This document shows, piece after piece, positions 1,162 to 32,354 of a stretch of DNA of 64,000 bases; within the stretch, counting starts at the first letter, position 1; every line of letters begins with the position of its first letter. Below the pieces are notes generated by a model, which was given only the letters and a program-made list of their open reading frames with translations, was not told where the DNA came from and ran no database searches. Source of the stretch: Eledone cirrhosa. Taxonomy: Eukaryota. The stretch spans positions 51,646,001-51,710,000 of the forward strand of contig OZ024744.1 in NCBI GenBank assembly GCA_964016885.1. The letters are read 5' to 3'. Position numbers and translations under genes: made by a program.

Positions 1162-1183
1162 AATCATCATCATTATTATTATT
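1082..1183. repeat. Compound (CAT)/(CAC)/(ATT) triplet microsatellite; its last ATT units form the left edge of the insertion nest
   Basis: Direct reading; ends cattattattatt immediately before the SINE head. Confidence 0.9.
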
Positions 1184-1355
1184 GTGGATTGGCAGTATCG
1201 GTAGAGGGTCGGACGCCATGCTTTGACGCATAGAGTTACGGCCCTTTCCATTCTGAGTACAAATCCCGCCGAGGTTAACTTTGCCTTTCATCCTTACGGG
1301 ATGTCAGCCCTTGATATCATCCCTTGATGTCAACCCTTGTGGCCAATAAAGAAAT
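1184..1355 (+). mobile_element. tRNA-derived SINE with a LINE-type 3' tail
   Basis: A-box-like TGGCAGTATCGG (1190-1201) and degenerate B-box GAGTACAAATCCC (1255-1267). The 3' end atgtcaacccttgtggccaataaagaaatc matches the Tx1-like LINE terminus at 27/30 and is followed by (ATT)n. The body resembles octopus SINEs from memory; not verified by search. Confidence 0.75.
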
Positions 1356-1386
1356 CATCATTATTATTATTATTATTATTATTATT
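1356..1386. repeat. (ATT)n shared tail between the + strand SINE and - strand Dong A (tail-to-tail)
   Basis: catcattattatt...attatt read directly. Confidence 0.9.
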
Positions 1387-3732
1387 GTTCTTTGAGTCTC
1401 AGTCATTGATGTTAGTTAACTGGAAAGTTTGTTGAAATGAATATCAAGCTACTACCTGCAGCCTCAGATATTCAGGACGTATCGGAGGGTTCTTGCTGTT
1501 CCCAGCAAGCATGCCTTTTGAAGCGTTCCAAAAAGCGTGAAGGGGCCAATTTTCTTTAACCATCCCTGGAAACTTTTTGAGATAGTCCCTAGTGCGCCTA
1601 TGACAATCGGGACCACTTTGACTTCATGGCAGTTCCAAATCCTTTTTACCTCCCACTTTAAGTCCTGGTATCGGTTAATTTTCTCCCTCTCCTTCTCTTG
1701 CACTCTCGTGTCGAATGGGCAGGCGACATCCACAATCAGGCACGATCTTTTTTCTTTGTCCCAAACCACCAGGTCAGGTCTACTGTGTTCCAGTTTCTTG
1801 TCCGTCTGTATCCTAAAATCCCACAGCACCTTCACCTGATCGTTTTCTATCACCGACTCTGGCTTATGCTCATACCACTTCTCAGAATGTGGTAAATTGT
1901 TTACTTTGCATAGGTGCCAGTGGATCACCCTGCCCATCACATCATGACTCCAGCCCTTATAGTGAGTCTGGGCTAGGTGTTTACACTCGGATACAATGTG
2001 AGCCACAGTCTCCTCTCTCTCTCCACAGATCCTGCACAGTGGGCTAGCCTCCTCCTTGTAAATATGGTGTTTCAACCACTTCGTTTTGAGGGCCTGCTCT
2101 TGCGCAGCCATTAACATTCCTTCTGTAGCCTTTTTAATGTCTCCTCTTTTCAACCAGTTCCATGCCTGTGGATCTCTGAATTCAGTTTTCTCAAAGACGG
2201 TACTATGAAGGGATTTTTCCTGAAGGCTGCTCTTTCTCCTTGTTATTTCCTCCTTGGACATCCCCTGGTCTATTGTCCTCTCCTTCCGTACAGTTCTGAG
2301 CATTGGCTCCTTACTATCAGTCACGTATTTATGTAGGTTGTTTTTCTCCATCTGAACACAGTCCTCTATGCTGATAAGACCTCTTCCACCTTCAGATCTC
2401 CTTAAGTAGAGTCTATCGACATCACTCCTCTTGTGAACATGTTGTAGATAGTCAATAGCTTCCTAGTCTTTCTATCCATTTCTTTTTGTTCAGCAACATT
2501 CCATCGTAGAATTCCCGCACTGTACCTAATAATAGACACAGCTCGGGAATTTACTGCATTTATGGCATTCCTACTGTTCAGATGTGACTCTAATACGCTC
2601 CTTACTCTCCGAATGTATTCAGATCTTATCAATTCCTTCATTTTTTTTGTTATTGATGTCGTCAGCCTCCAGAACACCCAAATACTTGTATCCTTCTTCA
2701 GTGTCAATTTCCTTTATCATCTCACCTGTTGGTACCTGGATTCCGTTGCTTCTGCTCAATTTACCCCTCTTCATCACAAGGACTCCACACTTACTAATAC
2801 CAAATTGCATACATATACCATTGCTGAAAATACGGTCAGTGTCAACAAGCACATCCAACTCCTTCTCACTCTTCCTGAAGAGCTTAAGATCGTCCATGAA
2901 GAGGAGGTGATTGATGGTAAGCTCTCCCTTTCCCAACTTGTATCCTGCTTTCACTTTTCGCAGTATAATGGTCAGGGGCATCAGGGCAAGGACAAACAAC
3001 AGAGGGGACAGACTATCTCCCTGGAAGATACCTCTCTTGATCTTCACGCCTCCCAAGGATTCTCCAGCTGATGTAAACTCTGTTTTCCAGGACTTCATAC
3101 TTTTGCCCAACAACTGTCTGATGTTATCTGCCACCTTGAAGATCTCTAGGCTTTTGGTGATCCAAGAATGAGACACCATGTCAAATGCCTTTTTGTAGTC
3201 TATCCATCCCATGGCAAGACCAGTGTGTCTCCTCTTGCAATTCCTCATTACCATCTTATCAATAAGTAACTGGTCCTTTGTACCACGGGACTTCTTTCGG
3301 CATCCTTTCTGTTCGTCCGGTAACAAGTTGTTTGTGTAGAGGTGATGGTAGATTTCCTGAGACACAATGCTTGTCAACAGTTTCCACATTACGGACAGAC
3401 ATGTGATAGGTCTATAGTTGGTAACATCATTACCCTTGATTCGGTCTTTCATTACCAGAACTGTGGTACCTTTTGTCAACCACTCTGGTACCTTACCTGA
3501 CATCAAGCAGTCATTGAACATGGTTGTCAGTTTCGGGTGGAGGGATGTTATATTTTTAATCCAATACTCCTGCACACCATCTGGGCCTGGTGATTTCCAG
3601 TTGGTTAGTTTTTTGGTCTGCCCCTTAAGAGTTTCAACTGTGATACTCAAATCAGTTTGTTGGTGTGCCTGTTCACTAATCTCCTTCTGTACTGTCTCAA
3701 TCCATACTGCCTGGTCATTATGTTTAACATCC
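1387..3732 (-). mobile_element. R4/Dong-clade RLE non-LTR retrotransposon, family A, 5'-truncated
   Basis: RT motifs KSPGPDG, NYRPITCL, WIDYKKAFD, GIFQGDSLSPLLF, FMDD, YKYLG; CCHC CRICGEREETVAHIVSEC; RLE SRPDLVVWD..IVDVACP. About 77-nt 3' UTR, then (TAA)n on its own strand. Confidence 0.9.
1464..3732 (-). pseudogene. Frameshifted RT-RLE ORF of Dong A
   Basis: Three ORF-track pieces join into one R4-type protein via two frameshifts: at the T-run ~2641-2648 (NNKK/MKELIR) and ~2433 (MF[H]KRSDVDRLYLRRSEGGRGL). The conserved RHD reads SHD. Confidence 0.85.
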
Positions 3733-3739
3733 TTATTAG

Positions 3740-3803
<64 letters not shown>
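3733..3803. repeat. (ATT)n spacer with two AGT interruptions, Dong A 5' end / Tx1 copy 1 5' end
   Basis: Direct reading. Confidence 0.95.
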
Positions 3804-4018
3804 GAATGCCATGGTTGACGGAGGCTCGGCTCTGTAAGGTATAGTAATTTTTAACCGTTAAAACAATTGTAAATTGTTTAAAACTTGAACCAAATTGTTG
3901 ATAAAGACACCCTCCTCCTCGTGAGAGGGGTCTTTCTGTCCGTTATTTGGCCCTTCGGGGTTAAATAACCAGTTATTGGGGTTTTGTACCCAAAATTTCA
4001 TTTTAAACAAAAAACAAC
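3804..4018 (+). promoter_or_regulatory. Structured LINE 5' UTR (probable internal promoter), with an 8-codon uORF MVDGGSAL at 3811-3837
   Basis: Hairpins at 3903-3935 (GTGA loop), 3942-3969 (cTTCGg loop) and 3976-3993. Promoter role inferred from L1-clade biology. Confidence 0.55.
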
Positions 4019-6112
4019 ATGGCTACAAAAAAGAAATTTCATACGTCACTCCCACTCATTCCGTCTTCTTCTTCCTCAATCATCACTACAGCAGAGAGAA
4101 GATTGTCTCTCTCCCTCCCTTCTTTAAATGTGTCTCTCTCCCTCCCTTCTCTTTCGCAAGTGACGAAAGAAAAGAAAAGTCTCGTGCAAAGCGTGCAAGG
4201 TTTCTCCACGACGACGACGACAGCGACGAAACAGGTGTGCGGGAAATACGAAAACCCAGTTCATTCGTCTGACGTCAGGAATAATAGCAGTAGCAGCCGT
4301 AATAACAACAGCAACAGTGACAATGAAAACAACAGTAGCAGCCGCAACAGCATCACCAGCAGCATAAACAACAACAGCATTAGCAGCAGCAACACCAACA
4401 ACAACCACAGCAACAGCGGCGGAGGCAGTAGTCGTAGTACCTGCAGCAACAAAAGTACCAGCAGCTCTGACGACAACAACAACAGCAGAGAAAAACCAAT
4501 CTCATTTGCAGGTATTGCGAAAAACCTGGAAACAATCCTCATAACAAATGAGGAATTAGAGGAAGCGAAGAAGATGGTGACAAAGAACGGACACCGAGCA
4601 ATCTGCAAGGCAGCGAAACATTTTTTCGAAACCCAAGAGCACTGTACGGTCACGTACCGTACAGTAAGTACAAAATCCCGTAGGGTGGAAAGAGCCACAG
4701 AGGCCCAAATACAAAAAGCCTTGGGGTCTGTGTGGCAGAGGAAAACGCACATCACCCGAGGCAAAAAATACGCCACCGTAGACGTACTTTTTGCCACACC
4801 CCAGGAGGCAAAGGCCCAATCAGTAGTGACCCTAAGGAGCGAGGAAATGGTGTTGGTGCCCTCCTACTGTGGGCAAAAAATTGTGAGGGTCAAACTGACC
4901 CACGTCCCCCCCGGAATGACCCCTTCTTGGCTGGCCGCGTCTGTCCTCGTCGGAATCGAGGACAAAACAACTGTACTGCAAGTACAGAAAAAAGTAAGAG
5001 AAGATTGGGTCGGCTCCTCCATTGAGATGCTAATCCAAACCAACCAGGAGTGCATCGAAGCTATCCCGGATGTGATAGACTTCGATAACGGCACTCAACT
5101 GCCCATAAGTGTTGAGGGCAAACGCCCGAAATGCTTTCGCTGTGGATCGAAGACTCACCTCAGGGCCTTCTGCAACGAGAAGACCATGAGAAAGGAGAAA
5201 ACCCCCCTCCTCCCGAATCCGGTTCCACGGCTACCAGCAACAGGACAAGCGGCAACCAGGAACGATAGGTCCGTGGCACCCACACCCACTCCACGGAAAT
5301 CAAAGACAGCAGCAGCAGTGGAAATATTAACAACAACAACAGCAATACCAAATGCAGCTGCAACAGAGACTCCAGTGCAAACATCACCAACAACAACAAG
5401 TGAAAGAGTGGAGCTGGTACCCCTCCCCGACCTTACAGAATCAGACATGGAGTGTGAGGTGGGAGAGGGATGGCAAAAGGTCGTAAGAAGGCACAAACGC
5501 AGAAGCAGCGCATCGTCGCCTTTGAAAAGGGAGGAAAGAAATGAGAAAAGGGTAAAGTCTACTGCAAAGAGACCCACAGCAGCAACACCACCAACACCAT
5601 CACCACCCACACCAGCACCACCATCACCACCGGCGACAACCCCACCGCCAACAACACCTTCAACACCACCACCACAAGCACCAACATCGCAAACACAACA
5701 ACAAAACACACACACCCAGCAACAACGACAAGAAAATAGCAGAACCACACCCCACCCCCAGAAAAACAAATGCACGGCAATAAACACACACAACAAGAAA
5801 CTAATGACTTACATAATTGAACACACAGACATTTCACAACAGGACTACATAATACCAGCACCAATCAAAACGCCAACTAACATAAGACTGCTAAAAATAG
5901 CACAGAAACAATACACAAACATTAAAACGAAATTCCCCAACGCAGTTGGTGATTTCAGGGACCTAGGAGGAACCATTAATCGAAGAGTATATTCAGACAT
6001 TCTCTTAGAAGAGCCGACGACCAGCCGAAGGGACGATTCAACGGTCCCTTCACCAGACGATCAAGTGAAAAGGGATGTAAAAACCATCCCTCCTCTACCA
6101 AAAGTACGGTAA
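4019..6112 (+). CDS. LINE ORF1 (gag-like nucleic-acid-binding protein), 697 aa
   Basis: CX2CX4HX4C knuckle CFRCGSKTHLRAFC; N/S-rich and P/T-rich disordered tracts; basic WQKVVRRHKRR motif; position upstream of ORF2. Confidence 0.9.
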   Translation: MATKKKFHTSLPLIPSSSSSIITTAERRLSLSLPSLNVSLSLPSLSQVTKEKKSLVQSVQGFSTTTTTATKQVCGKYENPVHSSDVRNNSSSSRNNNSNSDNENNSSSRNSITSSINNNSISSSNTNNNHSNSGGGSSRSTCSNKSTSSSDDNNNSREKPISFAGIAKNLETILITNEELEEAKKMVTKNGHRAICKAAKHFFETQEHCTVTYRTVSTKSRRVERATEAQIQKALGSVWQRKTHITRGKKYATVDVLFATPQEAKAQSVVTLRSEEMVLVPSYCGQKIVRVKLTHVPPGMTPSWLAASVLVGIEDKTTVLQVQKKVREDWVGSSIEMLIQTNQECIEAIPDVIDFDNGTQLPISVEGKRPKCFRCGSKTHLRAFCNEKTMRKEKTPLLPNPVPRLPATGQAATRNDRSVAPTPTPRKSKTAAAVEILTTTTAIPNAAATETPVQTSPTTTSERVELVPLPDLTESDMECEVGEGWQKVVRRHKRRSSASSPLKREERNEKRVKSTAKRPTAATPPTPSPPTPAPPSPPATTPPPTTPSTPPPQAPTSQTQQQNTHTQQQRQENSRTTPHPQKNKCTAINTHNKKLMTYIIEHTDISQQDYIIPAPIKTPTNIRLLKIAQKQYTNIKTKFPNAVGDFRDLGGTINRRVYSDILLEEPTTSRRDDSTVPSPDDQVKRDVKTIPPLPKVR

Positions 6113-6147
6113 GTGGTCTTTCCCATCTTTTCCACTCTATTTTAAAC

Positions 6148-9100
6148 ATGACCTCACTCAGAATAGGCAGCATAAATGCGCGTGGCTTGGGGTCGTCATG
6201 GAAGCAGGGTCACCTGCTCAACGACCTCAGGTCACTAAACATAGATGTAGTGGCCATCAGCGAGACCAGAATCTCCGAAGCACGGGCCTTCGCACCGATC
6301 TTCGGCGGCTACGATGTGTACGCATCTCCCAGCCGTCCTGGATCCGGTGGAGGAGTTGCTGTGCTTTTTCGGAGAGGTTTGGATCTCGCCATACGGGCCA
6401 TCTTCCTGGACCCAGAGGGTAAGCTGGTGGTGCTGGACGTGACCAGCGGAGACGGGCAAGCTTTCAGGCTAGTGGCCGTCTATGCCCCGACAGGAGCAGG
6501 GCGGCCTGATTTCTTCCGGCGTCTGGAGACCTTTCTTGGAACGTCCCGCTCTTTAGTGTTAGTGGGCGACTGGAACGGGATCTTAGATGCACGCTGGGAC
6601 TGTGTGGGATTAGCGGATAGGGGTGGAGGGTGCAAGAGCCTCACCAACCTGCTCAGGCGTTTTGAACTGTCTGACAGGTACCGATTGGATTTCCCGAATG
6701 TGCCAATGTGGACTTGGACAAACCGCATAGGGTCATCCAGATCATATCTAGATAGAGTATTTTGTAGGGAAATAGATAGGTCTAGCATAGGCTGTCCACA
6801 ATTCAAGATAGTCAGCTACACGGACCACAAATTCGTGACCTGTGTGCTTGACTTAGATAGGCTTCATAGACGAGGACCCGGCTACTGGAAGCTAAACGCG
6901 TCCTTACCAGCGCGCAAGGCCTACAGAGACCGGATTAGCGAACTAGTTAAGCGGGCGTTGACGGGGGCCATCGTCAACAACAAGTGGTGGTTTGCTCTGA
7001 AAAGAGCGATTAGAATAGAATCGATTAGGTTTAGTAAGGCTTTAGCAATAGAGAAAAATAGAGCAGAGGGAGAACTAGTTAGAAAATTAGACGAGGCGCT
7101 TAGCAAAGGCATTGCGACCGACGTGCTTGCGGCGAAATTGGCCCTTGACCAATTCTTCAATGCAAAGCACGAAGGCTGCGTTGTCAGAGCTAGGGTGCGT
7201 GCTCTCAGACACGAGGGGACGAAAGCCGTTCAATGGGCCCGAGTGGCGGAGGCGCGTCGTGGCAACAAAGCCACGATCCGGTCTTTGGTGGACCACGACG
7301 GGCGCATGCTACTCGATCCCGGGCAAATGTGTGAAGCTTTTCAGCGACACTTCGCTCAGCTGTTCGGGGGCAGCGGGGGGCCGGGTAGAGGGATGGACTT
7401 TAGTGTCTACCTCGACGGACTGCCGCGGCTCTCGGCCACTGAGGCGAAGTGTTGCGAAAAGCCGATAACAGCCGCTGAAGTACGGGAGGCAATGACTGGC
7501 TGCACAAGGGGTAAATCGCCTGGTTTGGATGGTCTGCCCTATGAACTTTACGTACAGATGCCAGACTTGTTCGGAGGCCTCTTGGCGGACGTCTACTGCA
7601 ACTGGCAACAGAACGGGAGAATTCCCAGTTCTGTGAGCCGAGGAGCGGTGGCACTGCTGAGAAAGGATCCGAACAAGGGGGATAACATAGACAATTTCCG
7701 GCCCATAACTCTGCTAAACACAGAGTTTAAGATTTTGGCCAAGGTGCTAGCAAAGAGGTTGGCGCTTGTCGTTGGTGGTCTGGTGGGAGAGGCGCAGACA
7801 TGCGCCATTCCCGACAGATCCATCCACGACAACCTCCACCTCATGCGATACATCGTAGAGAGGGTAGCTAGGGAACCTGGCACGGGTGGGTCCTTGATCA
7901 ATTTAGATCAGTCGAAAGCTTTCGATAGGGTCGACCATCGTTACCTAGCGGCAGTCCTGAGGGCGGCTGGCTTTGGGCCCGTCTTCAGAGGCTGGATCGC
8001 TGCCATGCACAGCGACATCTGCTCTGTGGTGAGAGTGAACGGTCACCTGTCGGAACCGTTCAACATCATGCGCTCGGTCCGCCAAGGATGTCCCCTCTCG
8101 TCCCTCTTGTACGTATTGACTCTCGAGCCATTACTGCACAAACTGGAGACGTTGAGGGGAGTCCCGCGCGAACTAGGATGCGGAAGATCCGTGTCAGCAT
8201 ATGCGGACGATGTCACCGTAGTGGTGTCGAACGCCAAACACATCGAGGCGATCGGCACTACACTAAGAGAATACGAAGCGGTGACAGGAGCAATGATCAA
8301 CCAGGAAAAGTCAGTGGGCCTGCAGCTCGGCACCTGGAGAGGCAGGTCCATGCCGTCCAACAGCGTCGTCGGGCGCTGGACGGACGGACCGGTTAAATTG
8401 CTAGGGGTCTGGTTCGGTCCGGACCTCCAGACGGACAAAAACTGGGACGAGGTGACGAGCAGGGTGGCTTCTCTCACCCAGAAATGGGCGGAGAGGAAGC
8501 TATCCCTGAAAGGTCGAGCGGAGGTGGCTAACGCGTACATCGCGTCTGTCATCTGCTACCGCCTAACCGTCGTACCTTGTCCTAAGCCTCGCCTGACTGC
8601 GCTGGAGCGTTTGCTCTTTCGCTTTTTGTGGAAGGGACGTGCTCCGATGGTCAGGCGGTCCATCTGTTGTCAACACCCGCTGCGTGGAGGGCTGGGCATG
8701 CCGTGGCTGATGATGCGCAGGCACGCGCTCAGGCTACGACATCTCCACCTCTTCCTCGACGGTGATCAGGTGTGGTCGCCGTTTGCTAGACGCGTTTTTC
8801 CCCAGCTCGTTTCCTTGACGGAGCTGCAGTCCTGGGTCAAGCGAAGACCGAGAGGGAGCGCCTGGAGACTGGAATGTCTTCAGGCGCTCACAGCCCTCGA
8901 CCAATCGGGCAATGTGATCGGTGGAAACTCCACCTCGGCGTTCTATAGAGGATTAGTGGAGGGGAAGAGCGACGACGTACTTGGGGAAACTCTAGGCGTC
9001 GACGAAAATCAACTAGCCAATCTCTTCGGAAGAACCTTCGGGCCAGGGCCTATGGACAACTTCCAGAAATCTCTGGCCTGGCAGTGCTACCGAGGAGCCT

Positions 9101-9567
9101 TGCCAGTTCGGGATAAACTCTACAGGCATGGAGGTGCCGTCAGCCGGGCATGTCCGAGATGCGCGCAGGGCGACGAAACCGTCCTGCACGCACTCGTCCA
9201 GTGTCCGAAAATTGCTGACTTGTGGGTTTATGTCGAACACCTGCTGTCGCGTTTAGGACGGATCCAGCTATCATCTGAGTCTATCGTGAGGATTGCCCCG
9301 CCCTCCTCCTTTAGCCGGGAAGGGCAGGCAGTTTTTATCTGTCTGGTGGCCATGGCGAAAGAGATAGTATGGTGGACACGTTTGAAAGGGCTGAAGACGA
9401 GCACTTACCTCTTCGGTGATGCTCTGATTGACTTTTTCAAATTTCATTTGAAAAGGAAAATCAGAGTAGAGAAGGAAGTGCTCTCTTCCCAGCATTTTGT
9501 TGAAAGATGGGTGAGAGAAGCAAGAATGGCCCGAGTGAATGGGCCGACTCTGAGTATATATCTGTAA
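6148..9567 (+). CDS. LINE ORF2 (APE endonuclease - reverse transcriptase - CCHC), 1139 aa
   Basis: APE motifs SINARG, ISET, VYAP, GDWN, LDRV, TDH; RT motifs KSPGLDG, NFRPITLLN, LDQSKAFDRV, RQGCPLS, YADD; C-terminal CPRC..H..C. Confidence 0.97.
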   Translation: MTSLRIGSINARGLGSSWKQGHLLNDLRSLNIDVVAISETRISEARAFAPIFGGYDVYASPSRPGSGGGVAVLFRRGLDLAIRAIFLDPEGKLVVLDVTSGDGQAFRLVAVYAPTGAGRPDFFRRLETFLGTSRSLVLVGDWNGILDARWDCVGLADRGGGCKSLTNLLRRFELSDRYRLDFPNVPMWTWTNRIGSSRSYLDRVFCREIDRSSIGCPQFKIVSYTDHKFVTCVLDLDRLHRRGPGYWKLNASLPARKAYRDRISELVKRALTGAIVNNKWWFALKRAIRIESIRFSKALAIEKNRAEGELVRKLDEALSKGIATDVLAAKLALDQFFNAKHEGCVVRARVRALRHEGTKAVQWARVAEARRGNKATIRSLVDHDGRMLLDPGQMCEAFQRHFAQLFGGSGGPGRGMDFSVYLDGLPRLSATEAKCCEKPITAAEVREAMTGCTRGKSPGLDGLPYELYVQMPDLFGGLLADVYCNWQQNGRIPSSVSRGAVALLRKDPNKGDNIDNFRPITLLNTEFKILAKVLAKRLALVVGGLVGEAQTCAIPDRSIHDNLHLMRYIVERVAREPGTGGSLINLDQSKAFDRVDHRYLAAVLRAAGFGPVFRGWIAAMHSDICSVVRVNGHLSEPFNIMRSVRQGCPLSSLLYVLTLEPLLHKLETLRGVPRELGCGRSVSAYADDVTVVVSNAKHIEAIGTTLREYEAVTGAMINQEKSVGLQLGTWRGRSMPSNSVVGRWTDGPVKLLGVWFGPDLQTDKNWDEVTSRVASLTQKWAERKLSLKGRAEVANAYIASVICYRLTVVPCPKPRLTALERLLFRFLWKGRAPMVRRSICCQHPLRGGLGMPWLMMRRHALRLRHLHLFLDGDQVWSPFARRVFPQLVSLTELQSWVKRRPRGSAWRLECLQALTALDQSGNVIGGNSTSAFYRGLVEGKSDDVLGETLGVDENQLANLFGRTFGPGPMDNFQKSLAWQCYRGALPVRDKLYRHGGAVSRACPRCAQGDETVLHALVQCPKIADLWVYVEHLLSRLGRIQLSSESIVRIAPPSSFSREGQAVFICLVAMAKEIVWWTRLKGLKTSTYLFGDALIDFFKFHLKRKIRVEKEVLSSQHFVERWVREARMARVNGPTLSIYL

Positions 9568-9818
9568 ACTAAAGGTGGAAAACTGGGAGAGGGCACTTGC
9601 CTTGGTGGTCAGGGTCATTGTGGCTTTTTACTGGGCTTTCTCCACAAATGTCCCTCCGAAGTCTCCCCCCTATTGGGGAATTTTTCATTGTTATTTTCAT
9701 TGTTATTTTTGTTACATCCTCTATTTTTGTTTTTTTTACACGCAGAAATGCCCATTTGTACCGTCCTGCATTGTCCTGCACTGTCCTTAATGTCTACTTT
9801 ATGTAAACCCTTGTGGTT

Positions 9819-9824
9819 AATAAA
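9819..9824 (+). terminator. AATAAA polyadenylation-like signal at the LINE 3' end (present in every copy)
   Basis: ggttAATAAAgaaatc directly before the (ATT)n tail. Confidence 0.55.
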
Positions 9825-9828
9825 GAAA

Positions 9829-9830
<2 letters not shown>

Positions 9831-9872
<42 letters not shown>
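9831..9872. repeat. (ATT)14 spacer, copy 1/copy 2
   Basis: Counted from sequence. Confidence 0.95.
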
Positions 9873-10087
9873 GAATGCCATGGTTGACGGAGGCTCGGCT
9901 CTGTAAGGTATAGTAATTTTTAACCGTTAAAACAATTGTAAATTGTTTAAAACTTGAACCAAATTGTTGATAAAGACACCCTCCTCCTCGTGAGAGGGGT
10001 CTTTCTGTCCGTTATTTGGCCCTTCGGGGTTAAATAACCAGTTATTGGGGTTTTGTACCCAAAATTTCATTTTAAACAAAAAACAAC

Positions 10088-21970: not shown

Positions 21971-21972
<2 letters not shown>

Positions 21973-22900: not shown

Positions 22901-22937
<37 letters not shown>
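22901..22937. repeat. (TAT)n spacer / tail of Dong B
   Basis: Direct reading. Confidence 0.95.
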
Positions 22938-25900
22938 TGCATTTATCTTGCTTTATGTTTATACGAGTTATCACCAAGTCACAACCAGTGACCTCAAGAG
23001 ACAACAAGGTCCGCCATGTTCAAGAAAGAACACACATATTCACACATGCATCCTTAGTGTTTAGACTTGTGATGTACTTATATTGACAGGATCTTCCTTA
23101 GTATATGGGCAGTTCCCATTAGTACTATCTTTTGTATTTCTCCTATACGCGGGTTTCCTGGGATTTGCGATAAGTAGTCGTTAGACCCCTTAGGTATCAT
23201 TCCCAGAGCGCCTACAACCACTGGTATTGTTTTAGTTCTCAATTTCCACATTTTTCCAATTTCTATCTCCAGGTCCTTATACTTGCTCAATTTTTCAAAT
23301 GTTTTTATAGATACATTCTTGTCTATTGGAACAGACATATCAATTAGCAGGCATACCCTCCTTTGAAAGTCCTTCAATATTATATCAGGTCTATTTGCAT
23401 CTATTTTTCGGTCTGTTTGGATGCTAAAGTTCCACAAGATTGAGATGTGATCTTTTTCAAGTATGGGAGGTGGTTGATGCTCCCACCAATTCTTTTGATG
23501 GGGCAGGTCAAAATGCTTGCACATTATCCAATGTATGTATTGTGCAGCTCTGTCATGCCTGTTTAGGTATTCGGTTGGAGCTATAGGACTGCACATTGAA
23601 ATTATATGGTCAATGGTCTCTGGTTGTTTTTTGCATACACGGCATAATGGGCTGCACCCATCTTTTATTATGTTGGCTTGGTAATTTTTTGTTGGCAGAC
23701 ACTGATCTTGTGCGGATATAATCAGTCCTTCAGTCTCCGATTTCAGTCCAGAGGATGCCAACCACTGATGGGTTAAAGTTTTGTCAACATCAGGATTGTT
23801 AGCTCGCTCTGGGTATTTTCCATACAGAGGCTTTTCTTGCCATTTCTTAGCCAGTTTCTGTAGCAGTTCTTTCTTTGCAGTTACTTTTACCTGCTTTGCT
23901 TTTTCTGTGTTTTCCATTTCAGCAGTAAATGGGACTTCTGAAATTTGTAGTCCATTACTGTATCTTTGTGCATCTTTTGTAATGGAATATGATCTTTTGG
24001 TGCTTTCGTGTTTCAAAACGAGTTTGATCATCCAATCATGTGATTCCCTTAGATATGTGGATAATCCAATTGTTCCAGTTTTCAACGCAATGTCTAACTG
24101 GATTAACCCACGTCCTCCTTCTTTCCTAGGGAGATATATTCTATCTATGTCTGCCTTAGGGTGATGCATTCTGTGCATGGTTAAGAATTTTCGGATTTTT
24201 GTATCGAGCCTACGGATCTCTGTGCTTGACCAGTTGATGACATTGTAACTGTAGGTTACTACTGGTATGGCAAGCGTGTTTATGGCATCGATCCTATTCC
24301 TTGCATTCAATTCCGTTCTTAAGATTGCTCTGACTCTGCGGTAACATTCCTTCCTTATCCTTTCCCTCATTGTCGAGTGCTTGATTCCGTCTCCTTCACA
24401 AACACCTAGATATTTGTAAGTTTGTTCTTGATCAAGCTCTCTTATCACGTTCCCCCGATCAAGATTAATGTCTGAACTCTTCAGCAGCTTTCCTCTGGTG
24501 AACGTTGCTTTGGCGCATTTATCCAGTCCAAACTCCATTTTAATGTCATCACTGAACTGCTTCACAGTGGATAATAGCCCTTGCAATTGTTCATCATTTT
24601 TTGCAAATAGTTTCAGGTCATCCATGTAGAAAAGGTGATTAATGGTTTTGTCATAGACTCTATATCCATGTTTTGTTTCATTGAGCATTTTACTTAATGG
24701 TATAAGTGCGATGCAGAATAAAAGCGGTGATAAAGAGTCACCCTGAAAAATTCCACAATTAATGTTAACTTCTCCAGCTTCCAGTGATTTTGTTTCACTA
24801 TTCAAAAGGAGTGTCGTTCTCCATGTCCTCATACTGAATGACAAAAACCTCCTGATAACGGGGGATATTTTGAAAATCTCTAAACATTTTTCAATCCAAC
24901 TGTGTGGCAAACTATCAAATGCTTTTTTATAATCTATCCAAGCAATCGATAGATTTTTGTGTCTATTATGACAATCTTCCAGTATCATTTTGTTAACCAG
25001 AAGCTGATCCTTACAGCCATATGAGCCTCGTTTACACCCTTTCTGCTCAATGGGAAATAGGTCATTTGTTATCAGGTGGTCATATGTGTATTCAGTTAGG
25101 ACTGATGTTAAAATTTTATACATTGTGGTCAAGCAGGTTATCGGTCTGTAATTTTTGGGATTGTTTGTCTCATCATTCTTCGGTAGCAGGAATGTAATGC
25201 CGTTAACTAGCCATGATGGTATCTTTTCTGGCTCCTTAACTATTTCATTGTAAAGTTGGGCTAACAGCTCATGAGACTCGGTGAAGGCATTTATCCAAAA
25301 GTTTTGTATTTTGTCTTTTCCTGGGGATTTCCATTTGCTGGTTTTTCTTAGAGCCAAGCGCAGCTGTTCAACTGTTATATTTTCCCATGTTTGTTCTTCA
25401 AGGTGAGCTGTTTCTTTCATTTGTCTGTCTATCCATGGGGCATGTATGTTATGAACTTTTTCTTCGGCCCAGATCTTTTCCCAGAATTCTTGCACTTCCT
25501 CCTTGGGTGGTATTGATTTAGCAGTTATTGTTGACTTACCAATTTTTCTGTAGAAGTTTCTTTGGTTGTTTTTGAACATATTATTGTCCTTATAGAATCT
25601 AGATCGTTTTTCAAAGCGCCTTATACGAGCAGCTTTGGCCGACACTTTTTGCTTGATTGTTTCTATCAGCATGTCTATGTCACATGTTGATCTTATACTG
25701 TACTTTTTTTTCAATTTTCTAAGTTTAGTTTGTTTAACATGTTCACCTACTTTATAGTTTGTTAAAATTTCTATGTCAGATCGGAGAAGGTTTATTTGGC
25801 GATTGATGTTATCTTGCCAAGTAGATTTCTTGTGGGAATTCCTTTGTTTTTTCATCTTCACTCCACATAAGTGAGTGGTGACTTTAGCCGATGCATAATA

Positions 25901-26252
25901 GAGATGATTTAAGTCAGTAATGCTTAGTTTGTTTGTGATGATAATGTTTTTGAGAATTATGTTAGTCTTGTGTATTATCTTTTGGTTCTGTTTGGAGTTC
26001 TGGATCTTAGGGAGGGTGTCTCGTTCCCCCATGTCAGATTCTTTCATTTTCATCCATTCGATCATAATTTCATCCTTCAAGTTGGCAAGTTCATTCTCAT
26101 TCATTTCTTTATCATTTACGATCTCATTATTTTCATTTGGAGTTTCATCCTGAGCATGCACTCCCTCCACTTTTTCGCTCCTTTCTTTAATTTGTTCTGT
26201 TGTCAGTGATTCCGCCCCAACTCTGGGATTCGAAGTGTTACAGTTTACCTCG
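22938..26252 (-). mobile_element. R4/Dong-clade RLE non-LTR retrotransposon, family B, 5'-truncated but with an uninterrupted ORF
   Basis: About 140-nt 3' UTR unrelated to family A, followed by (TAA)n on its own strand. No 5' UTR; the ORF abuts the microsatellite. Confidence 0.92.
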
Positions 26253-26284
26253 TTATTATTATTATTATTATTATTGAATGCCAT
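23078..26284 (-). CDS. RT + CCHC + restriction-like endonuclease ORF (1068 aa); first 11 codons (MAF-N8) come from the neighbouring LINE 5' end and the microsatellite
   Basis: KSPGKD, NYRPITCL, WIDYKKAFDS, GIFQGDSLSPLLF, YMDD, YKYLG, GGRGL, CRVC..H..C, RHD, NRPDII..LIDMSVP..K..KY; no internal stops. Confidence 0.85.
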   Translation of the reverse strand: MAFNNNNNNNNEVNCNTSNPRVGAESLTTEQIKERSEKVEGVHAQDETPNENNEIVNDKEMNENELANLKDEIMIEWMKMKESDMGERDTLPKIQNSKQNQKIIHKTNIILKNIIITNKLSITDLNHLYYASAKVTTHLCGVKMKKQRNSHKKSTWQDNINRQINLLRSDIEILTNYKVGEHVKQTKLRKLKKKYSIRSTCDIDMLIETIKQKVSAKAARIRRFEKRSRFYKDNNMFKNNQRNFYRKIGKSTITAKSIPPKEEVQEFWEKIWAEEKVHNIHAPWIDRQMKETAHLEEQTWENITVEQLRLALRKTSKWKSPGKDKIQNFWINAFTESHELLAQLYNEIVKEPEKIPSWLVNGITFLLPKNDETNNPKNYRPITCLTTMYKILTSVLTEYTYDHLITNDLFPIEQKGCKRGSYGCKDQLLVNKMILEDCHNRHKNLSIAWIDYKKAFDSLPHSWIEKCLEIFKISPVIRRFLSFSMRTWRTTLLLNSETKSLEAGEVNINCGIFQGDSLSPLLFCIALIPLSKMLNETKHGYRVYDKTINHLFYMDDLKLFAKNDEQLQGLLSTVKQFSDDIKMEFGLDKCAKATFTRGKLLKSSDINLDRGNVIRELDQEQTYKYLGVCEGDGIKHSTMRERIRKECYRRVRAILRTELNARNRIDAINTLAIPVVTYSYNVINWSSTEIRRLDTKIRKFLTMHRMHHPKADIDRIYLPRKEGGRGLIQLDIALKTGTIGLSTYLRESHDWMIKLVLKHESTKRSYSITKDAQRYSNGLQISEVPFTAEMENTEKAKQVKVTAKKELLQKLAKKWQEKPLYGKYPERANNPDVDKTLTHQWLASSGLKSETEGLIISAQDQCLPTKNYQANIIKDGCSPLCRVCKKQPETIDHIISMCSPIAPTEYLNRHDRAAQYIHWIMCKHFDLPHQKNWWEHQPPPILEKDHISILWNFSIQTDRKIDANRPDIILKDFQRRVCLLIDMSVPIDKNVSIKTFEKLSKYKDLEIEIGKMWKLRTKTIPVVVGALGMIPKGSNDYLSQIPGNPRIGEIQKIVLMGTAHILRKILSI
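26253..26275. repeat. (TTA)n spacer, Dong B 5' end / Tx1 copy 4 5' end
   Basis: Direct reading. Confidence 0.95.
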
Positions 26285-26489
26285 GGTTGACGGAGGCTCG
26301 GCTCTGTAAGGTATAGTAATTTTTAACCGTTAAAACAATTGTAAATTGTTTAAAACTTGAACCAAATTGTTGATAAAGACACCCTCCTCCTCGTGAGAGG
26401 GGTCTTTCTGTCCGTTATTTGGCCCTTCGGGGTTAAATAACCAGTTATTGGGGTTTTGTACCCAATATTCATTTTAAACAAAAAACAAC

Positions 26490-28586
26490 ATGGCTACGAA
26501 AAAGAAATTTCATACGTCACTCCCACTCATTCCGTCTTCTTCTTCCTCAATCATCACTACAGCAGAGAGAAGATTGTCTCTCTCCCTCCCTTCTTTAAAT
26601 GTGTCTCTCTCCCTCCCTTCTCTTTCGCAAGCGACGAAAGAAAAGAAAAGTCTCGTGCAAAGCGTGCAAGGTTTCTCCACGACGACGACGACAGCGACGA
26701 AACAGGTGTGCGGGAAATACGAAAACCCAGTTCATTCGTCTGACGTCAGGAATAATAGCAGTAGCAGCCGTAATAACAACAGCAACAGTGACAATGAAAA
26801 CAACAGTAGCAGCCGCAACAGCATCACCAGCAGCATAAACAACAACAGCATTAGCAGCAGCAACACCAACAACAACCACAGCAACAGCGGCGGAGGCAGT
26901 AGTCGTAGTACCTGCAGCAACAACAAAAGTACCAGCAGCTCTGACGACAACAACAACAGCAGAGAAAAACCAATCTCATTTGCAGGTATTGCGAAAAACT
27001 TGGAAACAATCCTCATAACAAATGAGGAATTAGAGGAAGCGAAGAAGATGGTGACAAAGAACGGACACCGAGCAATCTGCAAGGCAGCGGAAAAATTTTT
27101 CAAAACCCAAGAGCACTGTACGGTCACGTACCGTACAGTAAGTACAAAATCCCGTAGGGTGGAAAGAGCCACAGAGGCCCAAATACAAAAAGCCTTGGGG
27201 TCTGTGTGGCAGCGGAAAACGCACATCACCCGAGGCAAAAAATATGCCACCGTAGACGTACTTTTTGCCACACCCCAGGAGGCAAAGGCCCAATCAGTAG
27301 TGACCCTAAGGAGCGAGGAAATGGTGTTGGTGCCCTCCTACTGCGGGCAAAAAATTGTGAGGGTCAAACTGACCCACGTCCCCCCCGGAATGACCCCTTC
27401 TTGGCTGGCCGCGTCTGTCCTAATCGGAATCGAGGACAAAACAACTGTACTGCAAGTACAGAAAAAAGTAAGAGAAGATTGGGTCGGCTCCTCCATTGAG
27501 ATGCTAATCCAAACCAACCAGGAGTGCATCGAAGCTATCCCGGATGTGATAGACTTCGATAACGGCACTCAACTACCCATAAGTGTTGAGGGCAAACGCC
27601 CGAAATGCTTTCGCTGTGGATCGAAGACTCACCTCAGGGCCTTCTGCAACGAGAAGACCCTGAGAAAGGAGAAAACCCCCCTCCTTCCGAATCCGGCTCC
27701 ACGGCTACCAGCAACAGGACAAGCGGCAACCAGGAACGATAGGTCCGTGGCACCCATACCCACGCCACGGAAATCAAAAACAGCAGCAGCAGTGGAAATA
27801 TTAACAACAACAACAGCAATACCAAATGCAGCTGCAACAGAGACTCCAGTGCAAACATCACCAACAACAACAAGTGAAAGAGTGGAGCTGGTACCCCTCC
27901 CCGACCTTACAGAATCAGACATGGAGTGTGAGGTGGGAGAGGGATGGCAAAAGGTCGCAAGAAGGCACAAACGCAGAAGCAGCGCATCGTCGCCTTTGAA
28001 AAGGGAGGAAAGAAATGAGAAAAGGGTAAAGTCTACTGCAAAGAGACCCACAGCAGCAACACCACCAACACCATCACCACCCACACCAGCACCACCATCA
28101 CCACCGGCGACAACCCCACCGCCAACAACACCTTCAACACCACCACCACAAGCACCAACATCGCAAACACAACAACAAAACACACACACCCAGCAACAAC
28201 GACAAGAAAATAGCAGAACCACACCCCACCCCCAGAAAAACAAATGCACGGCAATAAACACACACAACAAGAAACTAATGACTTACATAATTGAACACAC
28301 AGACATTTCACAACAGGACTACATAATACCAGCACCAATCAAAACGCCAACTAACATAAGACTGCTAAAAATAGCACAGAAACAATACACAAACATTAAA
28401 ACGAAATTCCCCAACGCAGTTGGTGATTTCAGGGACCTAGGAGGAACCATCAATCGAAGAGTATATTCAGACATTCTCTTAGAAGAGCCGACGACCAGCC
28501 GAAGGGACGATTCAACGGTCCCTTCACCAGACGATCAAGTGAAAAGGGATGTAAAAACCATCCCTCCTCTACCAAAAGTACGGTAA
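26490..28586 (+). CDS. LINE ORF1, copy 4 (698 aa)
   Basis: Intact knuckle; about 9 substitutions plus 1 inserted Asn versus copies 1-3. Confidence 0.9.
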   Translation: MATKKKFHTSLPLIPSSSSSIITTAERRLSLSLPSLNVSLSLPSLSQATKEKKSLVQSVQGFSTTTTTATKQVCGKYENPVHSSDVRNNSSSSRNNNSNSDNENNSSSRNSITSSINNNSISSSNTNNNHSNSGGGSSRSTCSNNKSTSSSDDNNNSREKPISFAGIAKNLETILITNEELEEAKKMVTKNGHRAICKAAEKFFKTQEHCTVTYRTVSTKSRRVERATEAQIQKALGSVWQRKTHITRGKKYATVDVLFATPQEAKAQSVVTLRSEEMVLVPSYCGQKIVRVKLTHVPPGMTPSWLAASVLIGIEDKTTVLQVQKKVREDWVGSSIEMLIQTNQECIEAIPDVIDFDNGTQLPISVEGKRPKCFRCGSKTHLRAFCNEKTLRKEKTPLLPNPAPRLPATGQAATRNDRSVAPIPTPRKSKTAAAVEILTTTTAIPNAAATETPVQTSPTTTSERVELVPLPDLTESDMECEVGEGWQKVARRHKRRSSASSPLKREERNEKRVKSTAKRPTAATPPTPSPPTPAPPSPPATTPPPTTPSTPPPQAPTSQTQQQNTHTQQQRQENSRTTPHPQKNKCTAINTHNKKLMTYIIEHTDISQQDYIIPAPIKTPTNIRLLKIAQKQYTNIKTKFPNAVGDFRDLGGTINRRVYSDILLEEPTTSRRDDSTVPSPDDQVKRDVKTIPPLPKVR

Positions 28587-28620
28587 GTGGTCTTTCCCAT
28601 CTTTTCCACTCTATTTAAAC

Positions 28621-31600
28621 ATGACCTCACTCAGAATAGGCAGCATAAATGCGCGTGGCTTGGGGTCGTCATGGAAGCAGGGTCACCTGCTCAACGACCT
28701 CAGGTCACTAAACATAGATGTAGTGGCCATCAGCGAGACCAGAATCTCCGAAGCACGGGCCTTCGCACCGATCTTCGGCGGCTACGATGTGTACGCATCT
28801 CCCAGCCGTCCTGGATCGGGTGGAGGAGTTGCTGTGCTTTTTCGGAGAGGTTTGGATCTCGCCATACGGGCCATCTTCCTGGACCCAGAGGGTAAGCTGG
28901 TGGTGCTGGACGTGACCAGCGGAGACGGGCAAGCTTTCAGGCTAGTGGCCGTCTATGCCCCGACAGGAGCAGGGCGGCCTGATTTCTTCCGGCGTCTGGA
29001 AACCTTTCTTGGAACGTCCCGCTCTTTAGTGTTAGTGGGCGACTGGAACGGGATCTTAGATGCACGCTGGGACTGTGTGGGATTAGCGGATAGGGGTGGA
29101 GGGTGCAAGAGCCTCACCAACCTGCTCAGGCGTTTTGAACTGTCTGACAGGTACCGATTGGATTTCCCGAATGTGCCAATGTGGACTTGGACAAACCGCA
29201 TAGGGTCATCCAGATCATATCTAGATAGAGTATTTTGTAGGGAAATAGATAGGTCTAGCATAGGCTGTCCACAATTCAAGATAGTCAGCTACACGGACCA
29301 CAAATTCGTGATCTGTGTGCTTGACTTAGATAGGCTTCATAGACGAGGACCCGGCTACTGGAAGCTAAACGCGTCCTTACCAGCGCGCAAGGCCTACAGA
29401 GACCGGATTAGCGAACTAGTTAAGCGGGCGTTGACGGGGGCCATCGTCAACAACAAGTGGTGGTTTGCTCTGAAAAGAGCGATTAGAATAGAATCGATTA
29501 GGTTTAGTAAGGCTTTAGCAATAGAGAAAAATAGAGCAGAGGGAGAACTAGTTAGAAAATTAGACGAGGCGCTTAGCAAAGGCATTGCGACCGACGTGCT
29601 TGCGGCGAAATTGGTCCTTGACCAATTCTTCAATGCAAAGCACGAAGGCTGCGTTGTCAGAGCTAGGGTGCGTGCTCTCAGACACGAGGGGACGAAAGCC
29701 GTTCAATGGGCCCGAGTGGCGGAGGCGCGTCGTGGCAACAAAGCCACGATCCGGTCTTTGGTGGACCACGACGGGCGCATGCTACTCGATCCCGGGCAAA
29801 TGTGTGAAGCTTTTCAGCGACACTTCGCTCAGCTGTTCGGGGGCAGCGGGGGGCCGGGTAGAGGGATGGACTTTAGTGTCTACCTCGACGGACTGCCGCG
29901 GCTCTCGGCCACTGAGGCGAAGTGTTGCGAAAAGCCGATAACAGCCGCTGAAGTACGGGAGGCAATGACTGGCTGCACAAGGGGTAAATCGCCTGGTTTG
30001 GATGGTCTGCCCTATGAACTTTACGTACAGATGCCAGACTTGTTCGGAGGCCTCTTGGCGGACGTCTACTGCAACTGGCAACAGAACGGGAGAATTCCCA
30101 GTTCTGTGAGCCGAGGAGCGGTGGCACTGCTGAGAAAGGATCCGAACAAGGGGGATAACATAGACAATTTCCGGCCCATAACTCTGCTAAACACAGAGTT
30201 TAAGATTTTGGCCAAGGTGCTAGCAAAGAGGTTGGCGCTTGTCGTTGGTGGTCTGGTGGGAGAGGCGCAGACATGCGCCATTCCCGACAGATCCATCCAC
30301 GACAACCTCCACCTCATGCGATACATCGTAGAGAGGGTAGCTAGGGAACCTGGCACGGGTGGGTCCTTGATCAATTTAGATCAGTCGAAAGCTTTCGATA
30401 GGGTCGACCATCGTTACCTAGCGGCAGTCCTGAGGGCGGCTGGCTTTGGGCCCGTCTTCAGAGGCTGGATCGCTGCCATGCACAGCGACATCTGCTCTGT
30501 GGTGAGAGTGAACGGTCACCTGTCGGAACCGTTCAACATCATGCGCTCGGTCCGCCAAGGATGTCCCCTCTCGTCCCTCTTGTACGTATTGACTCTCGAG
30601 CCATTACTGCACAAACTGGAGACGTTGAGGGGAGTCCCGCGCGAACTAGGATGCGGAAGATCCGTGTCAGCATATGCGGACGATGTCACCGTAGTGGTGT
30701 CGAACGCCAAACACATCGAGGCGATCGGCACTACACTAAGAGAATACGAAGCGGTGACAGGAGCAATGATCAACCAGGAAAAGTCAGTGGGCCTGCAGCT
30801 CGGCACCTGGAGAGGCAGGTCCATGCCGTCCAACAGCGTCGTCGGGCGCTGGACGGACGGACCGGTTAAATTGCTAGGGGTCTGGTTCGGTCCGGACCTC
30901 CAGACGGACAAAAACTGGGACGAGGTGACGAGCAGGGTGGCTTCTCTCACCCAGAAATGGGCGGAGAGGAAGCTATCCCTGAAAGGTCGAGCGGAGGTGG
31001 CTAACGCGTACATCGCGTCTGTCATCTGCTACCGCCTAACCGTCGTACCTTGTCCTAAGCCTCGCCTGACTGCGCTGGAGCGTTTGCTCTTTCGCTTTTT
31101 GTGGAAGGGACGTGCTCCGATGGTCAGGCGGTCCATCTGTTGTCAACACCCGCTACGTGGAGGGCTGGGCATGCCGTGGCTGATGATGCGCAGGCACGCG
31201 CTCAGGCTACGACATCTCCACCTCTTCCTCGACGGTGATCAGGTGTGGTCGCCGTTTGCTAGACGCGTTTTTCCCCAGCTCGTTTCCTTGACGGAGCTGC
31301 AGTCCTGGGTCAAGCGAAGACCGAGAGGGAGCGCCTGGAGACTGGAATGTCTTCAGGCGCTCACAGCCCTCGACCAATCGGGCAATGTGATCGGTGGAAA
31401 CTCCACCTCGGCGTTCTATAGAGGATTAGTGGAGGGGAAGAGCGACGACGTACTTGGGGAAACTCTAGGCGTCGACGAAAATCAACTAGCCAATCTCTTC
31501 GGAAGAACTTTCGGGCCAGGGCCTATGGACAACTTCCAGAAATCTCTGGCCTGGCAGTGCTACCGAGGAGCCTTGCCAGTTCGGGATAAACTCTACAGGC

Positions 31601-32040
31601 ATGGAGGTGCCGTCAGCCGGGCATGTCCGAGATGCGCGCAGGGCGACGAAACCGTCCTGCACGCACTCGTCCAGTGTCCGAAAATTGCTGACTTGTGGGT
31701 TTATGTCGAACACCTGCTGTCGCGTTTAGGACGGATCCAGCTATCATCTGGGTCCATCGTGAGGATTGCCCCGCCCTCCTCCTTTAGCCGGGAAGGGCAG
31801 GCAGTTTTTATCTGTCTGGTGGCCATGGCGAAAGAGATAGTATGGTGGACACGTTTGAAAGGGCTGAAGACGAGCACTTACCTCTTCGGTGATGCTCTGA
31901 TTGACTTTTTCAAATTTCATTTGAAAAGGAAAATCAGAGTAGAGAGGGAAGTGCTCTCTTCCCAGCATTTTGTTGAAAGATGGGTGAGAGAAGCAAGAAT
32001 GGCCCGAGTGAATGGGCCGACTCTGAGTATATATCTGTAA
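28621..32040 (+). CDS. LINE ORF2 (APE-RT), copy 4
   Basis: Intact; 4 aa differences seen versus copy 1. Confidence 0.97.
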   Translation: MTSLRIGSINARGLGSSWKQGHLLNDLRSLNIDVVAISETRISEARAFAPIFGGYDVYASPSRPGSGGGVAVLFRRGLDLAIRAIFLDPEGKLVVLDVTSGDGQAFRLVAVYAPTGAGRPDFFRRLETFLGTSRSLVLVGDWNGILDARWDCVGLADRGGGCKSLTNLLRRFELSDRYRLDFPNVPMWTWTNRIGSSRSYLDRVFCREIDRSSIGCPQFKIVSYTDHKFVICVLDLDRLHRRGPGYWKLNASLPARKAYRDRISELVKRALTGAIVNNKWWFALKRAIRIESIRFSKALAIEKNRAEGELVRKLDEALSKGIATDVLAAKLVLDQFFNAKHEGCVVRARVRALRHEGTKAVQWARVAEARRGNKATIRSLVDHDGRMLLDPGQMCEAFQRHFAQLFGGSGGPGRGMDFSVYLDGLPRLSATEAKCCEKPITAAEVREAMTGCTRGKSPGLDGLPYELYVQMPDLFGGLLADVYCNWQQNGRIPSSVSRGAVALLRKDPNKGDNIDNFRPITLLNTEFKILAKVLAKRLALVVGGLVGEAQTCAIPDRSIHDNLHLMRYIVERVAREPGTGGSLINLDQSKAFDRVDHRYLAAVLRAAGFGPVFRGWIAAMHSDICSVVRVNGHLSEPFNIMRSVRQGCPLSSLLYVLTLEPLLHKLETLRGVPRELGCGRSVSAYADDVTVVVSNAKHIEAIGTTLREYEAVTGAMINQEKSVGLQLGTWRGRSMPSNSVVGRWTDGPVKLLGVWFGPDLQTDKNWDEVTSRVASLTQKWAERKLSLKGRAEVANAYIASVICYRLTVVPCPKPRLTALERLLFRFLWKGRAPMVRRSICCQHPLRGGLGMPWLMMRRHALRLRHLHLFLDGDQVWSPFARRVFPQLVSLTELQSWVKRRPRGSAWRLECLQALTALDQSGNVIGGNSTSAFYRGLVEGKSDDVLGETLGVDENQLANLFGRTFGPGPMDNFQKSLAWQCYRGALPVRDKLYRHGGAVSRACPRCAQGDETVLHALVQCPKIADLWVYVEHLLSRLGRIQLSSGSIVRIAPPSSFSREGQAVFICLVAMAKEIVWWTRLKGLKTSTYLFGDALIDFFKFHLKRKIRVEREVLSSQHFVERWVREARMARVNGPTLSIYL

Positions 32041-32301
32041 ACTAAAGGTGGAAAACTGGGAGAGGGCACTTGCCTTGGTGGTCAGGGTCATTGTGGCTTT
32101 TTACTGGGCTTTCTCCACAAATGTCCCTCCGAAGTCTCCCCCCTATTGGGGAATTTTTCATTGTTATTTTCATTGTTATTTTTGTTACATCCTCTGTTTT
32201 TGTTTTTTTTACACGCAGAAATGCCCATTTGTACCGTCCTGCATTGTCCTGCACTGTCCTTAATGTCTACTTTATGTAAACCCTTGTGGTTAATAAAGAA
32301 A

Positions 32302-32303
<2 letters not shown>

Positions 32304-32354
<51 letters not shown>
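32304..32354. repeat. (ATT)17 tail; right edge of the insertion nest
   Basis: Counted from sequence. Confidence 0.95.

Follow-up and report, generated by a model that had tools for sequence, protein, structure and literature searches.

The window analysed here is a 64,000-nucleotide stretch of the Eledone cirrhosa genome (assembly GCA_964016885.1, contig OZ024744.1, positions 51,646,001 to 51,710,000, forward strand), and it holds a stack of long interspersed elements (LINEs) separated by runs of the trinucleotide repeat (ATT)n. An initial annotation had read this stack as nine separate insertions by two retrotransposon clades that share one microsatellite from opposite strands and renew it for each other and for a short interspersed element (SINE). 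We find that the (ATT)n-sharing system is largely real and genome-wide, and that tandem Tx1 copies are often not independent of each other. As an explanation of the whole, it is probable that Tx1-like and Dong-like LINEs stack on opposite strands of (ATT)n and renew their target as they insert, and somewhat less so that they are in part completed on a neighbouring copy. The initial interpretation is supported with regard to targeting, polarity and renewal, and not with regard to the SINE as a user of the repeat and to the independence of tandem copies.

Targeting of (ATT)n across the genome

Copies were counted in the 3.0 Gb genome by exact sequence patterns. The families concerned are Tx1A, a Tx1-like LINE with an apurinic/apyrimidinic endonuclease (APE), and DongA and DongB, two Dong-like LINEs with a restriction-like endonuclease (RLE). 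The genome has 1,606 exact matches to a 25-mer from the 5' end of Tx1A, and (ATT)3 lies directly upstream of 1,539 of them, a share above the 20% of flanks of one sequence type from which PMC4494074 recognises target specificity. At the fetched loci an ATT run precedes the Tx1A head in 30 of 30. Exact 3' motifs give at least 7,050 Tx1A-type, at least 2,855 DongA and at least 4,367 DongB copies. As a measure of the chance level, 360 kb of arbitrarily placed DNA contains 26 runs of (ATT)4 or longer, and V(ATT)6 starts number 44,308 genome-wide.

Truncated copies provide a sharper test, since their arbitrary internal 5' ends cannot carry a built-in run. Scoring of 90 loci yielded 37 with the 5' junction in view (29 Dong, 8 Tx1A). 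The truncated Dong junctions comprise 20 with (AAT)3 or longer, three with (AAG)n and six with other sequence, two of these being imperfect AAT, and none with ATT; the truncated Tx1A junctions comprise five with (ATT)3 or longer, one with (CTT)n and two with other sequence, and none with AAT. An automatic classing of the 5' junctions of all loci mixed in internal deletions and subfamily boundaries and was used only for marker duplications. At the other end of the elements, three or more repeat units are found at 28 of 30 Tx1A loci and 58 of 60 Dong loci. The initial annotation had named two observations that would speak against it, a lack of (ATT)n at the 5' flank of most copies and a random orientation relative to the repeat; both were looked for, and the repeat is present at the 5' flanks, those of truncated copies included.

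Runs of (AAG)n/(CTT)n also adjoin Dong 5' ends or sit between ATT runs at individual loci (L089, L116, L120, L230, L011), and those at 5' junctions are possibly a product of slippage.

Opposite strands, clustering and probable renewal of the target

Neighbour relations were analysed over the initial 54.8 Mb of contig 1, where 187 3' ends were listed. Gaps shorter than 10 kb number 78, compared to 6.3 expected under uniform placement. The repeat has the same polarity in 75 of the 78 pairs closer than 10 kb, in 18 of 22 at 10–25 kb and in 43 of 86 beyond 25 kb, and Tx1-Dong neighbours within 10 kb are oppositely oriented in 38 of 39 cases. Orientation follows repeat polarity. Repeated splitting of one run predicts such shared polarity, whereas independent seeds in tolerant chromatin would give a 50:50 distribution.

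The same pattern extends over larger distances in a 120-kb region of contig 1 (C1:37,100,000-37,219,999), picked for looking dense. Its Tx1 and Dong elements, about 30 in number, belong to at least five subfamilies and include two element runs of ~40 kb; all Tx1 hits fall on one strand and all Dong hits on the other, with 34 ATT runs against 3 AAT runs. One DongB/ATT/Tx1 junction is present twice, in identical form. Because this region has similar stacks, the window is not exceptional. At another locus (L062) an interruption of the run is duplicated on both sides of a Dong copy whose 5' flank is non-Dong, as a target duplication would give. The proposed renewal of the target is supported by the polarity inherited within clusters, the polarised 120-kb region and the duplicated interruption. 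Rough arithmetic on stack size, with an assumed 45,000–80,000 seeds and 20,000–35,000 insertions, gives 0.04–26 stacks of nine or more under a renewing (Yule) model and fewer than 0.01 under a non-renewing Poisson model with the same inputs.

Identity of the elements

The first open reading frame (ORF) of Tx1A, ORF1, encodes 701 amino acids with a CCHC knuckle, CFRCGSKTHLRAFC; a separate ORF1 with such a knuckle is typical of the Tx1 clade. ORF2 contains the Pfam domains Exo_endo_phos (the N-terminal APE), RVT_1 and a C-terminal zf-RVT, and its best solved relative is L1 ORF2p (E 1.7e-52). The closest relatives of Tx1A (41–44%) carry no clade names. DongA and DongB each have a single ORF with reverse transcriptase (RT), CCHC and a C-terminal endonuclease of the PD-(D/E)xK type, and no APE; their proteins align with the R2 protein through the RLE region and have relatives at 50–65% identity, again without clade names. 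Catalytic-type motifs are found in the Tx1A and Dong proteins alike.

In the family alignment, Tx1A subfamilies have ORF2 in common (~96%) and diverge in their 5' ends and ORF1s (ORF1 41–57%). Common variants among Tx1A copies are widely recombined, with four-gamete conflicts at 67–92% of common site pairs, to which homoplasy may contribute.

Layout of the stack in the window

On the plus strand, the left edge of the stack is a compound (CAT/CAC)n microsatellite closing in (ATT)4 (1084..1183), which is probably the original seed. It is followed on the same strand by 117 nt from the 5' part of an abundant SINE (1184..1300), lacking its first few nucleotides and its usual 3' part, and by ~60 nt of the 3' tail of Tx1B, a second Tx1-like subfamily (1300..1359, plus strand), with a 13-nt stutter. 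After (ATT)9 (1360..1386) comes a 5'-truncated DongA on the minus strand (1387..3733). It matches the 3'-terminal 2.35 kb of a full copy 4.55 kb long at 93%; its RT, CCHC and RPD..D..K regions are recognisable, and its frame is broken near 2460-2620.

An ATT run of ~23 units with two interruptions (3734..3803) leads into three full-length Tx1A copies on the plus strand: W1 (3804..9830), with ORF1 at 4007-6112 including the CCHC knuckle and ORF2 at 5980-9567 including APE, RT and zf-RVT, W2 (9873..15898) and W3 (15947..21972). They are separated by (ATT)14 (9831..9872) and (ATT)16 (15899..15946), and W3 is followed by (ATT)27 (21973..22053). The next plus-strand insert is a short one of Tx1A type (22054..22532), made of an inverted ORF2 piece (22054-22432, element positions ~4880-5257) and the last ~100 nt in sense orientation at 97% identity; it resembles an inversion such as twin priming would produce. 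Beyond an interrupted ATT/GTT run (22533..22558) lie two minus-strand elements, a DongA 3' fragment of ~345 nt (22559..22900) and, after 12 ATT units (22901..22937), a 5'-truncated DongB (22938..26252), whose frame is open through RT, CCHC and RPD..D..K; other DongB copies reach further 5'. Seven ATT units (26253..26275) separate DongB from a fourth full-length plus-strand Tx1A copy, W4 (26276..32303), which differs from W1–W3 at 32–34 positions (a separate source), and (ATT)17 (32304..32354) forms the right end of the stack. All the ATT runs are given as read on the plus strand. In each of the four 6.03-kb Tx1A copies ORF1 and ORF2 are open, W2 and W3 included, and all three Dong copies are 5'-truncated.

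The layout agrees with the initial annotation in the order and strands of the elements, namely SINE(+), DongA(-), three Tx1A(+), an inverted Tx1 fragment with a plus tail, DongA(-), DongB(-) and Tx1A(+), and in its ATT-type runs, of which ten were found, at 1172, 1360, 3733-3803, 9831, 15899, 21973, 22533, 22901, 26253 and 32304. Its statement that every boundary is an ATT run and that no body is interrupted has one exception, the join of SINE and Tx1B tail at ~1300, which has no ATT.

To the right of the stack, positions 32700-38500 contain 3.2 kb of degenerate (TGG)n, an (AG)n tract and (CAC)n, and a 35-bp tandem repeat of 22 copies lies at 37712-38488. From 39184 to 64000 the window is occupied by ~490 copies of a 50-bp G-rich satellite with hints of higher-order structure, which continues past the window end.

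Shared 5' ends of neighbouring Tx1A copies

The count of nine separate insertions is not confirmed for the triplet W1–W3. Pairwise, these copies are 7, 3 and 8 substitutions apart, and every one of these lies in the 3' 40% of the element; the median between non-neighbours is 49. W1 equals W2 over the first 3,615 nt and W2 equals W3 over the first 4,744 nt; over the whole Tx1A element, variable sites are evenly distributed.

We compiled 26 head-to-tail Tx1 pairs, 13 in a first set that includes two pairs from the window and 13 from 19 newly fetched places, six of which were dropped with one or no near-full Tx1A copy delimited. Identity of 600 nt or more from base 1 occurs in 10 of the 26 neighbour pairs compared to 21 of 2,113 non-neighbour pairs, and identity of 2,500 nt or more in five neighbour pairs compared to none. 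The second set by itself has 5'-anchored identity of 600 nt or more in 4 of 13 pairs (p ~1e-5, with some dependence among the pairs). For identity anchored at the 3' end, no enrichment is seen in the same 26 pairs (2 of 26 neighbours versus 9.4%). Even the closest pair has three differences. An old neighbour pair has 248, but the initial 1,200 nt contribute only four of them. Two arrays have an interruption in the upstream run that is repeated at constant distance in front of every copy and does not follow the final one.

Simple unequal crossover was considered for the triplet and does not fit: it predicts identity of the 3' part with the upstream copy, which W1 and W2 do not have.

Seed runs and the SINE

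Twenty long ATT runs, taken at every fifth place among the first 100 in the list, were inspected by eye, and 17 start at the end of a repeat element: five at a SINE tail, five at the tail of another, unnamed repeat, six at Tx1 tails and one at a truncated Dong end, the other three starting elsewhere. The unnamed repeat is dispersed and carries an ATT tail (loci L197, L198, L203, L206, L213). Of 30 Tx1A heads, 10 are preceded by a Tx1A tail, three by another Tx1 tail, eight by a Dong end, five by a SINE tail and four by other DNA. Extra attraction to Tx1A tails is not significant (10 of 30 heads compared to 4 of 20 long ATT runs; p = 0.35 even at 11 of 30). With no preference beyond the ATT pool, stacking needs only a pool of target made by the elements and not mutual attraction. 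The upstream copy is 5'-intact at 16 of 16 new junctions compared to at most 22 of 30 tails generally (p = 0.037), a comparison of little weight given that the two sets differ in subfamily age.

The SINE head has 31,418 exact matches in the genome, some of them in satellite arrays. Its first 45 nt form tandem satellite arrays of their own (L246-L249, L260-L263; C1:10.53-10.54 Mb). From a sample of 30 matches, eight satellite units were dropped, leaving 22 copies: (ATT)3 is the 5' flank of three, the usual non-Tx1 tail closes 19, and 15–20 nt non-repeat duplications resembling target-site duplications (TSDs) are seen at 10. The SINE, which we take to resemble octopus SINEs, is therefore no (ATT)n specialist, and its role as a user of the pad is not supported: most of its insertions lie in other DNA, and the contribution of the SINE is mainly a short ATT tail that supplies seed runs. 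A SINE family sharing the Tx1 tail was likewise not found, since the junction of SINE and Tx1B tail occurs once in the genome with one mismatch allowed, in the window itself, and 19 of the 22 sampled SINEs have another tail. Most simply, this join is a template switch during insertion of Tx1B, or a Tx1B fragment that replaced the 3' part of the SINE.

Sister families on other repeats

Two related families are found upstream of the window on other microsatellites. Another RLE family (27–42% to DongB) lies 14–18 kb upstream (C28 ~51,628,450-51,631,750) with (TATG)n/(CATA)n flanks; it has 4,646 exact 3' motifs in the genome, the repeat at the 3' end in most of 20 loci and, by eye, at the 5' junction in ~9 of 14 truncated copies in view. 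Sister Tx1-like elements (~70% DNA identity to Tx1A) are stacked head to tail at C28 ~51,631,750-51,640,660. They carry (ATCT)n tails after a similar AATAAAGAAAT end, and an ATCT-type repeat lies upstream of ~9 of 10 exact heads. The use of (ATCT)n and of (ATT)n represents a target switch within one Tx1-like lineage.

Proposed mechanism and alternative explanations

We propose that the Tx1-like APE LINE has its sense strand on (ATT)n and the two Dong-like RLE LINEs use the (AAT)n strand, and that each likely nicks its own repeat strand and inserts there by target-primed reverse transcription. Following the established logic of that process, the first nick would fall on the AAT strand for Tx1A and on the ATT strand for Dong. 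Insertion would leave repeat on both sides and thereby renew the target; whole clusters are polarised because a split run keeps its polarity. Seed runs would largely derive from the ATT tails of the non-targeting SINE and of the other dispersed repeat, both of which adjoin such runs. A cDNA that stops early would anneal to the adjacent homologous copy, copy its 5' end together with the upstream run, and rejoin through the repeat. The shared 5' tracts suggest this completion of truncated cDNA on a neighbouring copy, the window triplet W1–W3 fits it, and we favour it, with some reserve, as their cause.

Several points weigh against this account. Among the truncated junctions, 9 of 29 in Dong and 3 of 8 in Tx1 have no clean run; 53 of the 90 loci exceeded the 1.5-kb flank and were left unscored, and most locus samples were the first matches on contig 1 and not random. 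As many as 16 of the 26 tandem pairs are without a shared 5' tract and look like independent insertions. Where a recipient of the shared 5' part was sought (n=12), it appeared to be the upstream copy in three cases and the downstream copy in five, with four undecided, an outcome confounded by copy age. Two public read runs of other organisms, searched for an empty allele, contained 0.07 and 0.40 of the flank words, and their contigs stopped short of spanning the locus. Finally, the placement of Tx1A in the Tx1 clade of the L1 group is putative, drawn from architecture, target and known motifs, and the Dong/R4 label of DongA and DongB is provisional in the same way.

A different origin of the shared tracts accepts targeting and places the sharing after insertion, either by tandem duplication of run plus element, after which the 3' part was replaced from cDNA, or by gene conversion from a break in the junction run. 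This origin likewise predicts 5'-anchored identity and repeated run markers; the mixed direction of transfer and the wide mosaicism of the copies, homoplasy aside, agree with it, and the doubled DongB/ATT/Tx1 junction of the 120-kb region shows that rearrangement happens. Against it, none of the 26 pairs is fully identical, and we regard it as rather unlikely. It is very improbable that the near-identical triplet is an assembly artefact, whether a false duplication or a homogenised consensus. The copies do differ by only 3–8 nt over 6 kb in an 18-kb tandem and were judged from the assembly; however, their spacer runs differ (14, 16 and 27 units), the differing sites mostly have alleles known from other copies, and 5'-only identity recurs at unrelated loci, including the old pair. 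That the elements have no sequence targeting, the runs being their own tails or made at the junction and the stacks reflecting tolerant chromatin, is hardly credible: both families do carry the repeat as a 3' tail, the (AAG)n at three Dong 5' junctions may arise in place and the window borders a large satellite, but truncated copies have a run of the correct polarity at arbitrary 5' ends, jumps between sense RNAs cannot produce opposite-strand Tx1-Dong joins, shared polarity would not be expected of tolerant regions, and the Dong copy at L062 has the interruption duplicated around it next to a non-Dong 5' flank.

Building on neighbour completion, we tentatively entertain a broader possibility, that the stacks act as LINE repair shops, since sharing a target brings new cDNA close to a homologous copy. 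Truncated insertions might routinely be completed into full-length, recombinant and potentially active elements with the promoter and ORF1 of a neighbour; the opposite-strand APE and RLE clades, seeded by SINE tails, might jointly make most long (ATT)n runs here; and the sister lineages might behave alike on (ATCT)n (Tx1-like) and (CATA)n (RLE), forming a natural series for specificity switching.

The mechanism of microsatellite targeting was described as not well understood in a 2013 review (PMC3812793). Here specificity is directly testable: the families are young and have many intact copies, two unrelated endonucleases use opposite strands of one 3-bp repeat, and sister families occupy other repeats. 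For the formation of LINE 5' junctions, 5'-anchored identity between neighbours provides a natural trace by which switches of cDNA to adjacent DNA can be counted. Furthermore, long ATT microsatellites in this genome are mostly flanked by elements, which matters for marker design, assembly and annotation of such genomes.

Comparison with known systems

Dong elements of the R4 clade (Dong of B. mori, DongAg, and DongBg of the snail Biomphalaria) target TAA microsatellites (PMC3812793). DongA and DongB are like them in being single-ORF elements with RT, CCHC and PD..D..K that lie in (AAT)n, and unlike them in that the repeat is used by two subfamilies at once and, on its opposite strand, by an APE element. 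Dong-R4 and L1-Tx1 LINEs have been recently active in Octopus vulgaris (PMC13282606), and the accessible text of PMC13282606 and PMC8967140 gives no LINE insertion target for octopus. For APE elements, the microsatellite targets reviewed are ACAY, AC, TC and TTC (PMC3812793); Kibi (TC), Koshi (TTC) and crocodilian Tx1 elements (TTCC/TTTC) are APE-type with two ORFs and are flanked by their target repeat (PMC4494074). Unlike these, Tx1A has (ATT)n as its target, which is unlisted for APE elements in the accessible text of both papers. In the freely available papers, apart from their supplements and from Repbase, we found no APE element targeting ATT/TAA and no case of an APE and an RLE element sharing a microsatellite from opposite strands. 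The tails and TSDs of RTE-type SINEs are treated in PMC13295347.

Pairs of elements sharing a site are known in other settings. TRAS and SART, both R1-clade APE elements, occupy the telomerase-made (TTAGG)n repeats of silkworm in opposite orientations. Tx1A and Dong likewise lie opposite each other in one repeat, but here one partner is of APE type and the other of RLE type, and they occupy an interstitial repeat. Keno (Tx1, APE) and Utopia (RLE) evolved in parallel to one site in the U2 snRNA gene (PMC4640811); they have the same 3' flank, hence the same orientation, in a low-copy gene, whereas here both strands of a repeat are used and both elements regenerate it. In tandem R1 arrays of 28S ribosomal DNA, new copies enter target regenerated by the TSD of the previous copy (PMC2718515), although in that case one family uses a 14-bp gene-derived site in one orientation.

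The system described here is thus made of known parts in a combination that we have not found described, plus one added signature, the 5'-anchored identity of neighbours. L1 cDNA sometimes copies nearby DNA, with 22 cases typically shorter than 250 bp (bioRxiv 10.1101/2024.08.27.596794); unlike these templated insertions and chimeric L1s, the tracts of Tx1A are kilobases long, are anchored at the 5' end of the element and recur among neighbouring pairs at the frequency given above.

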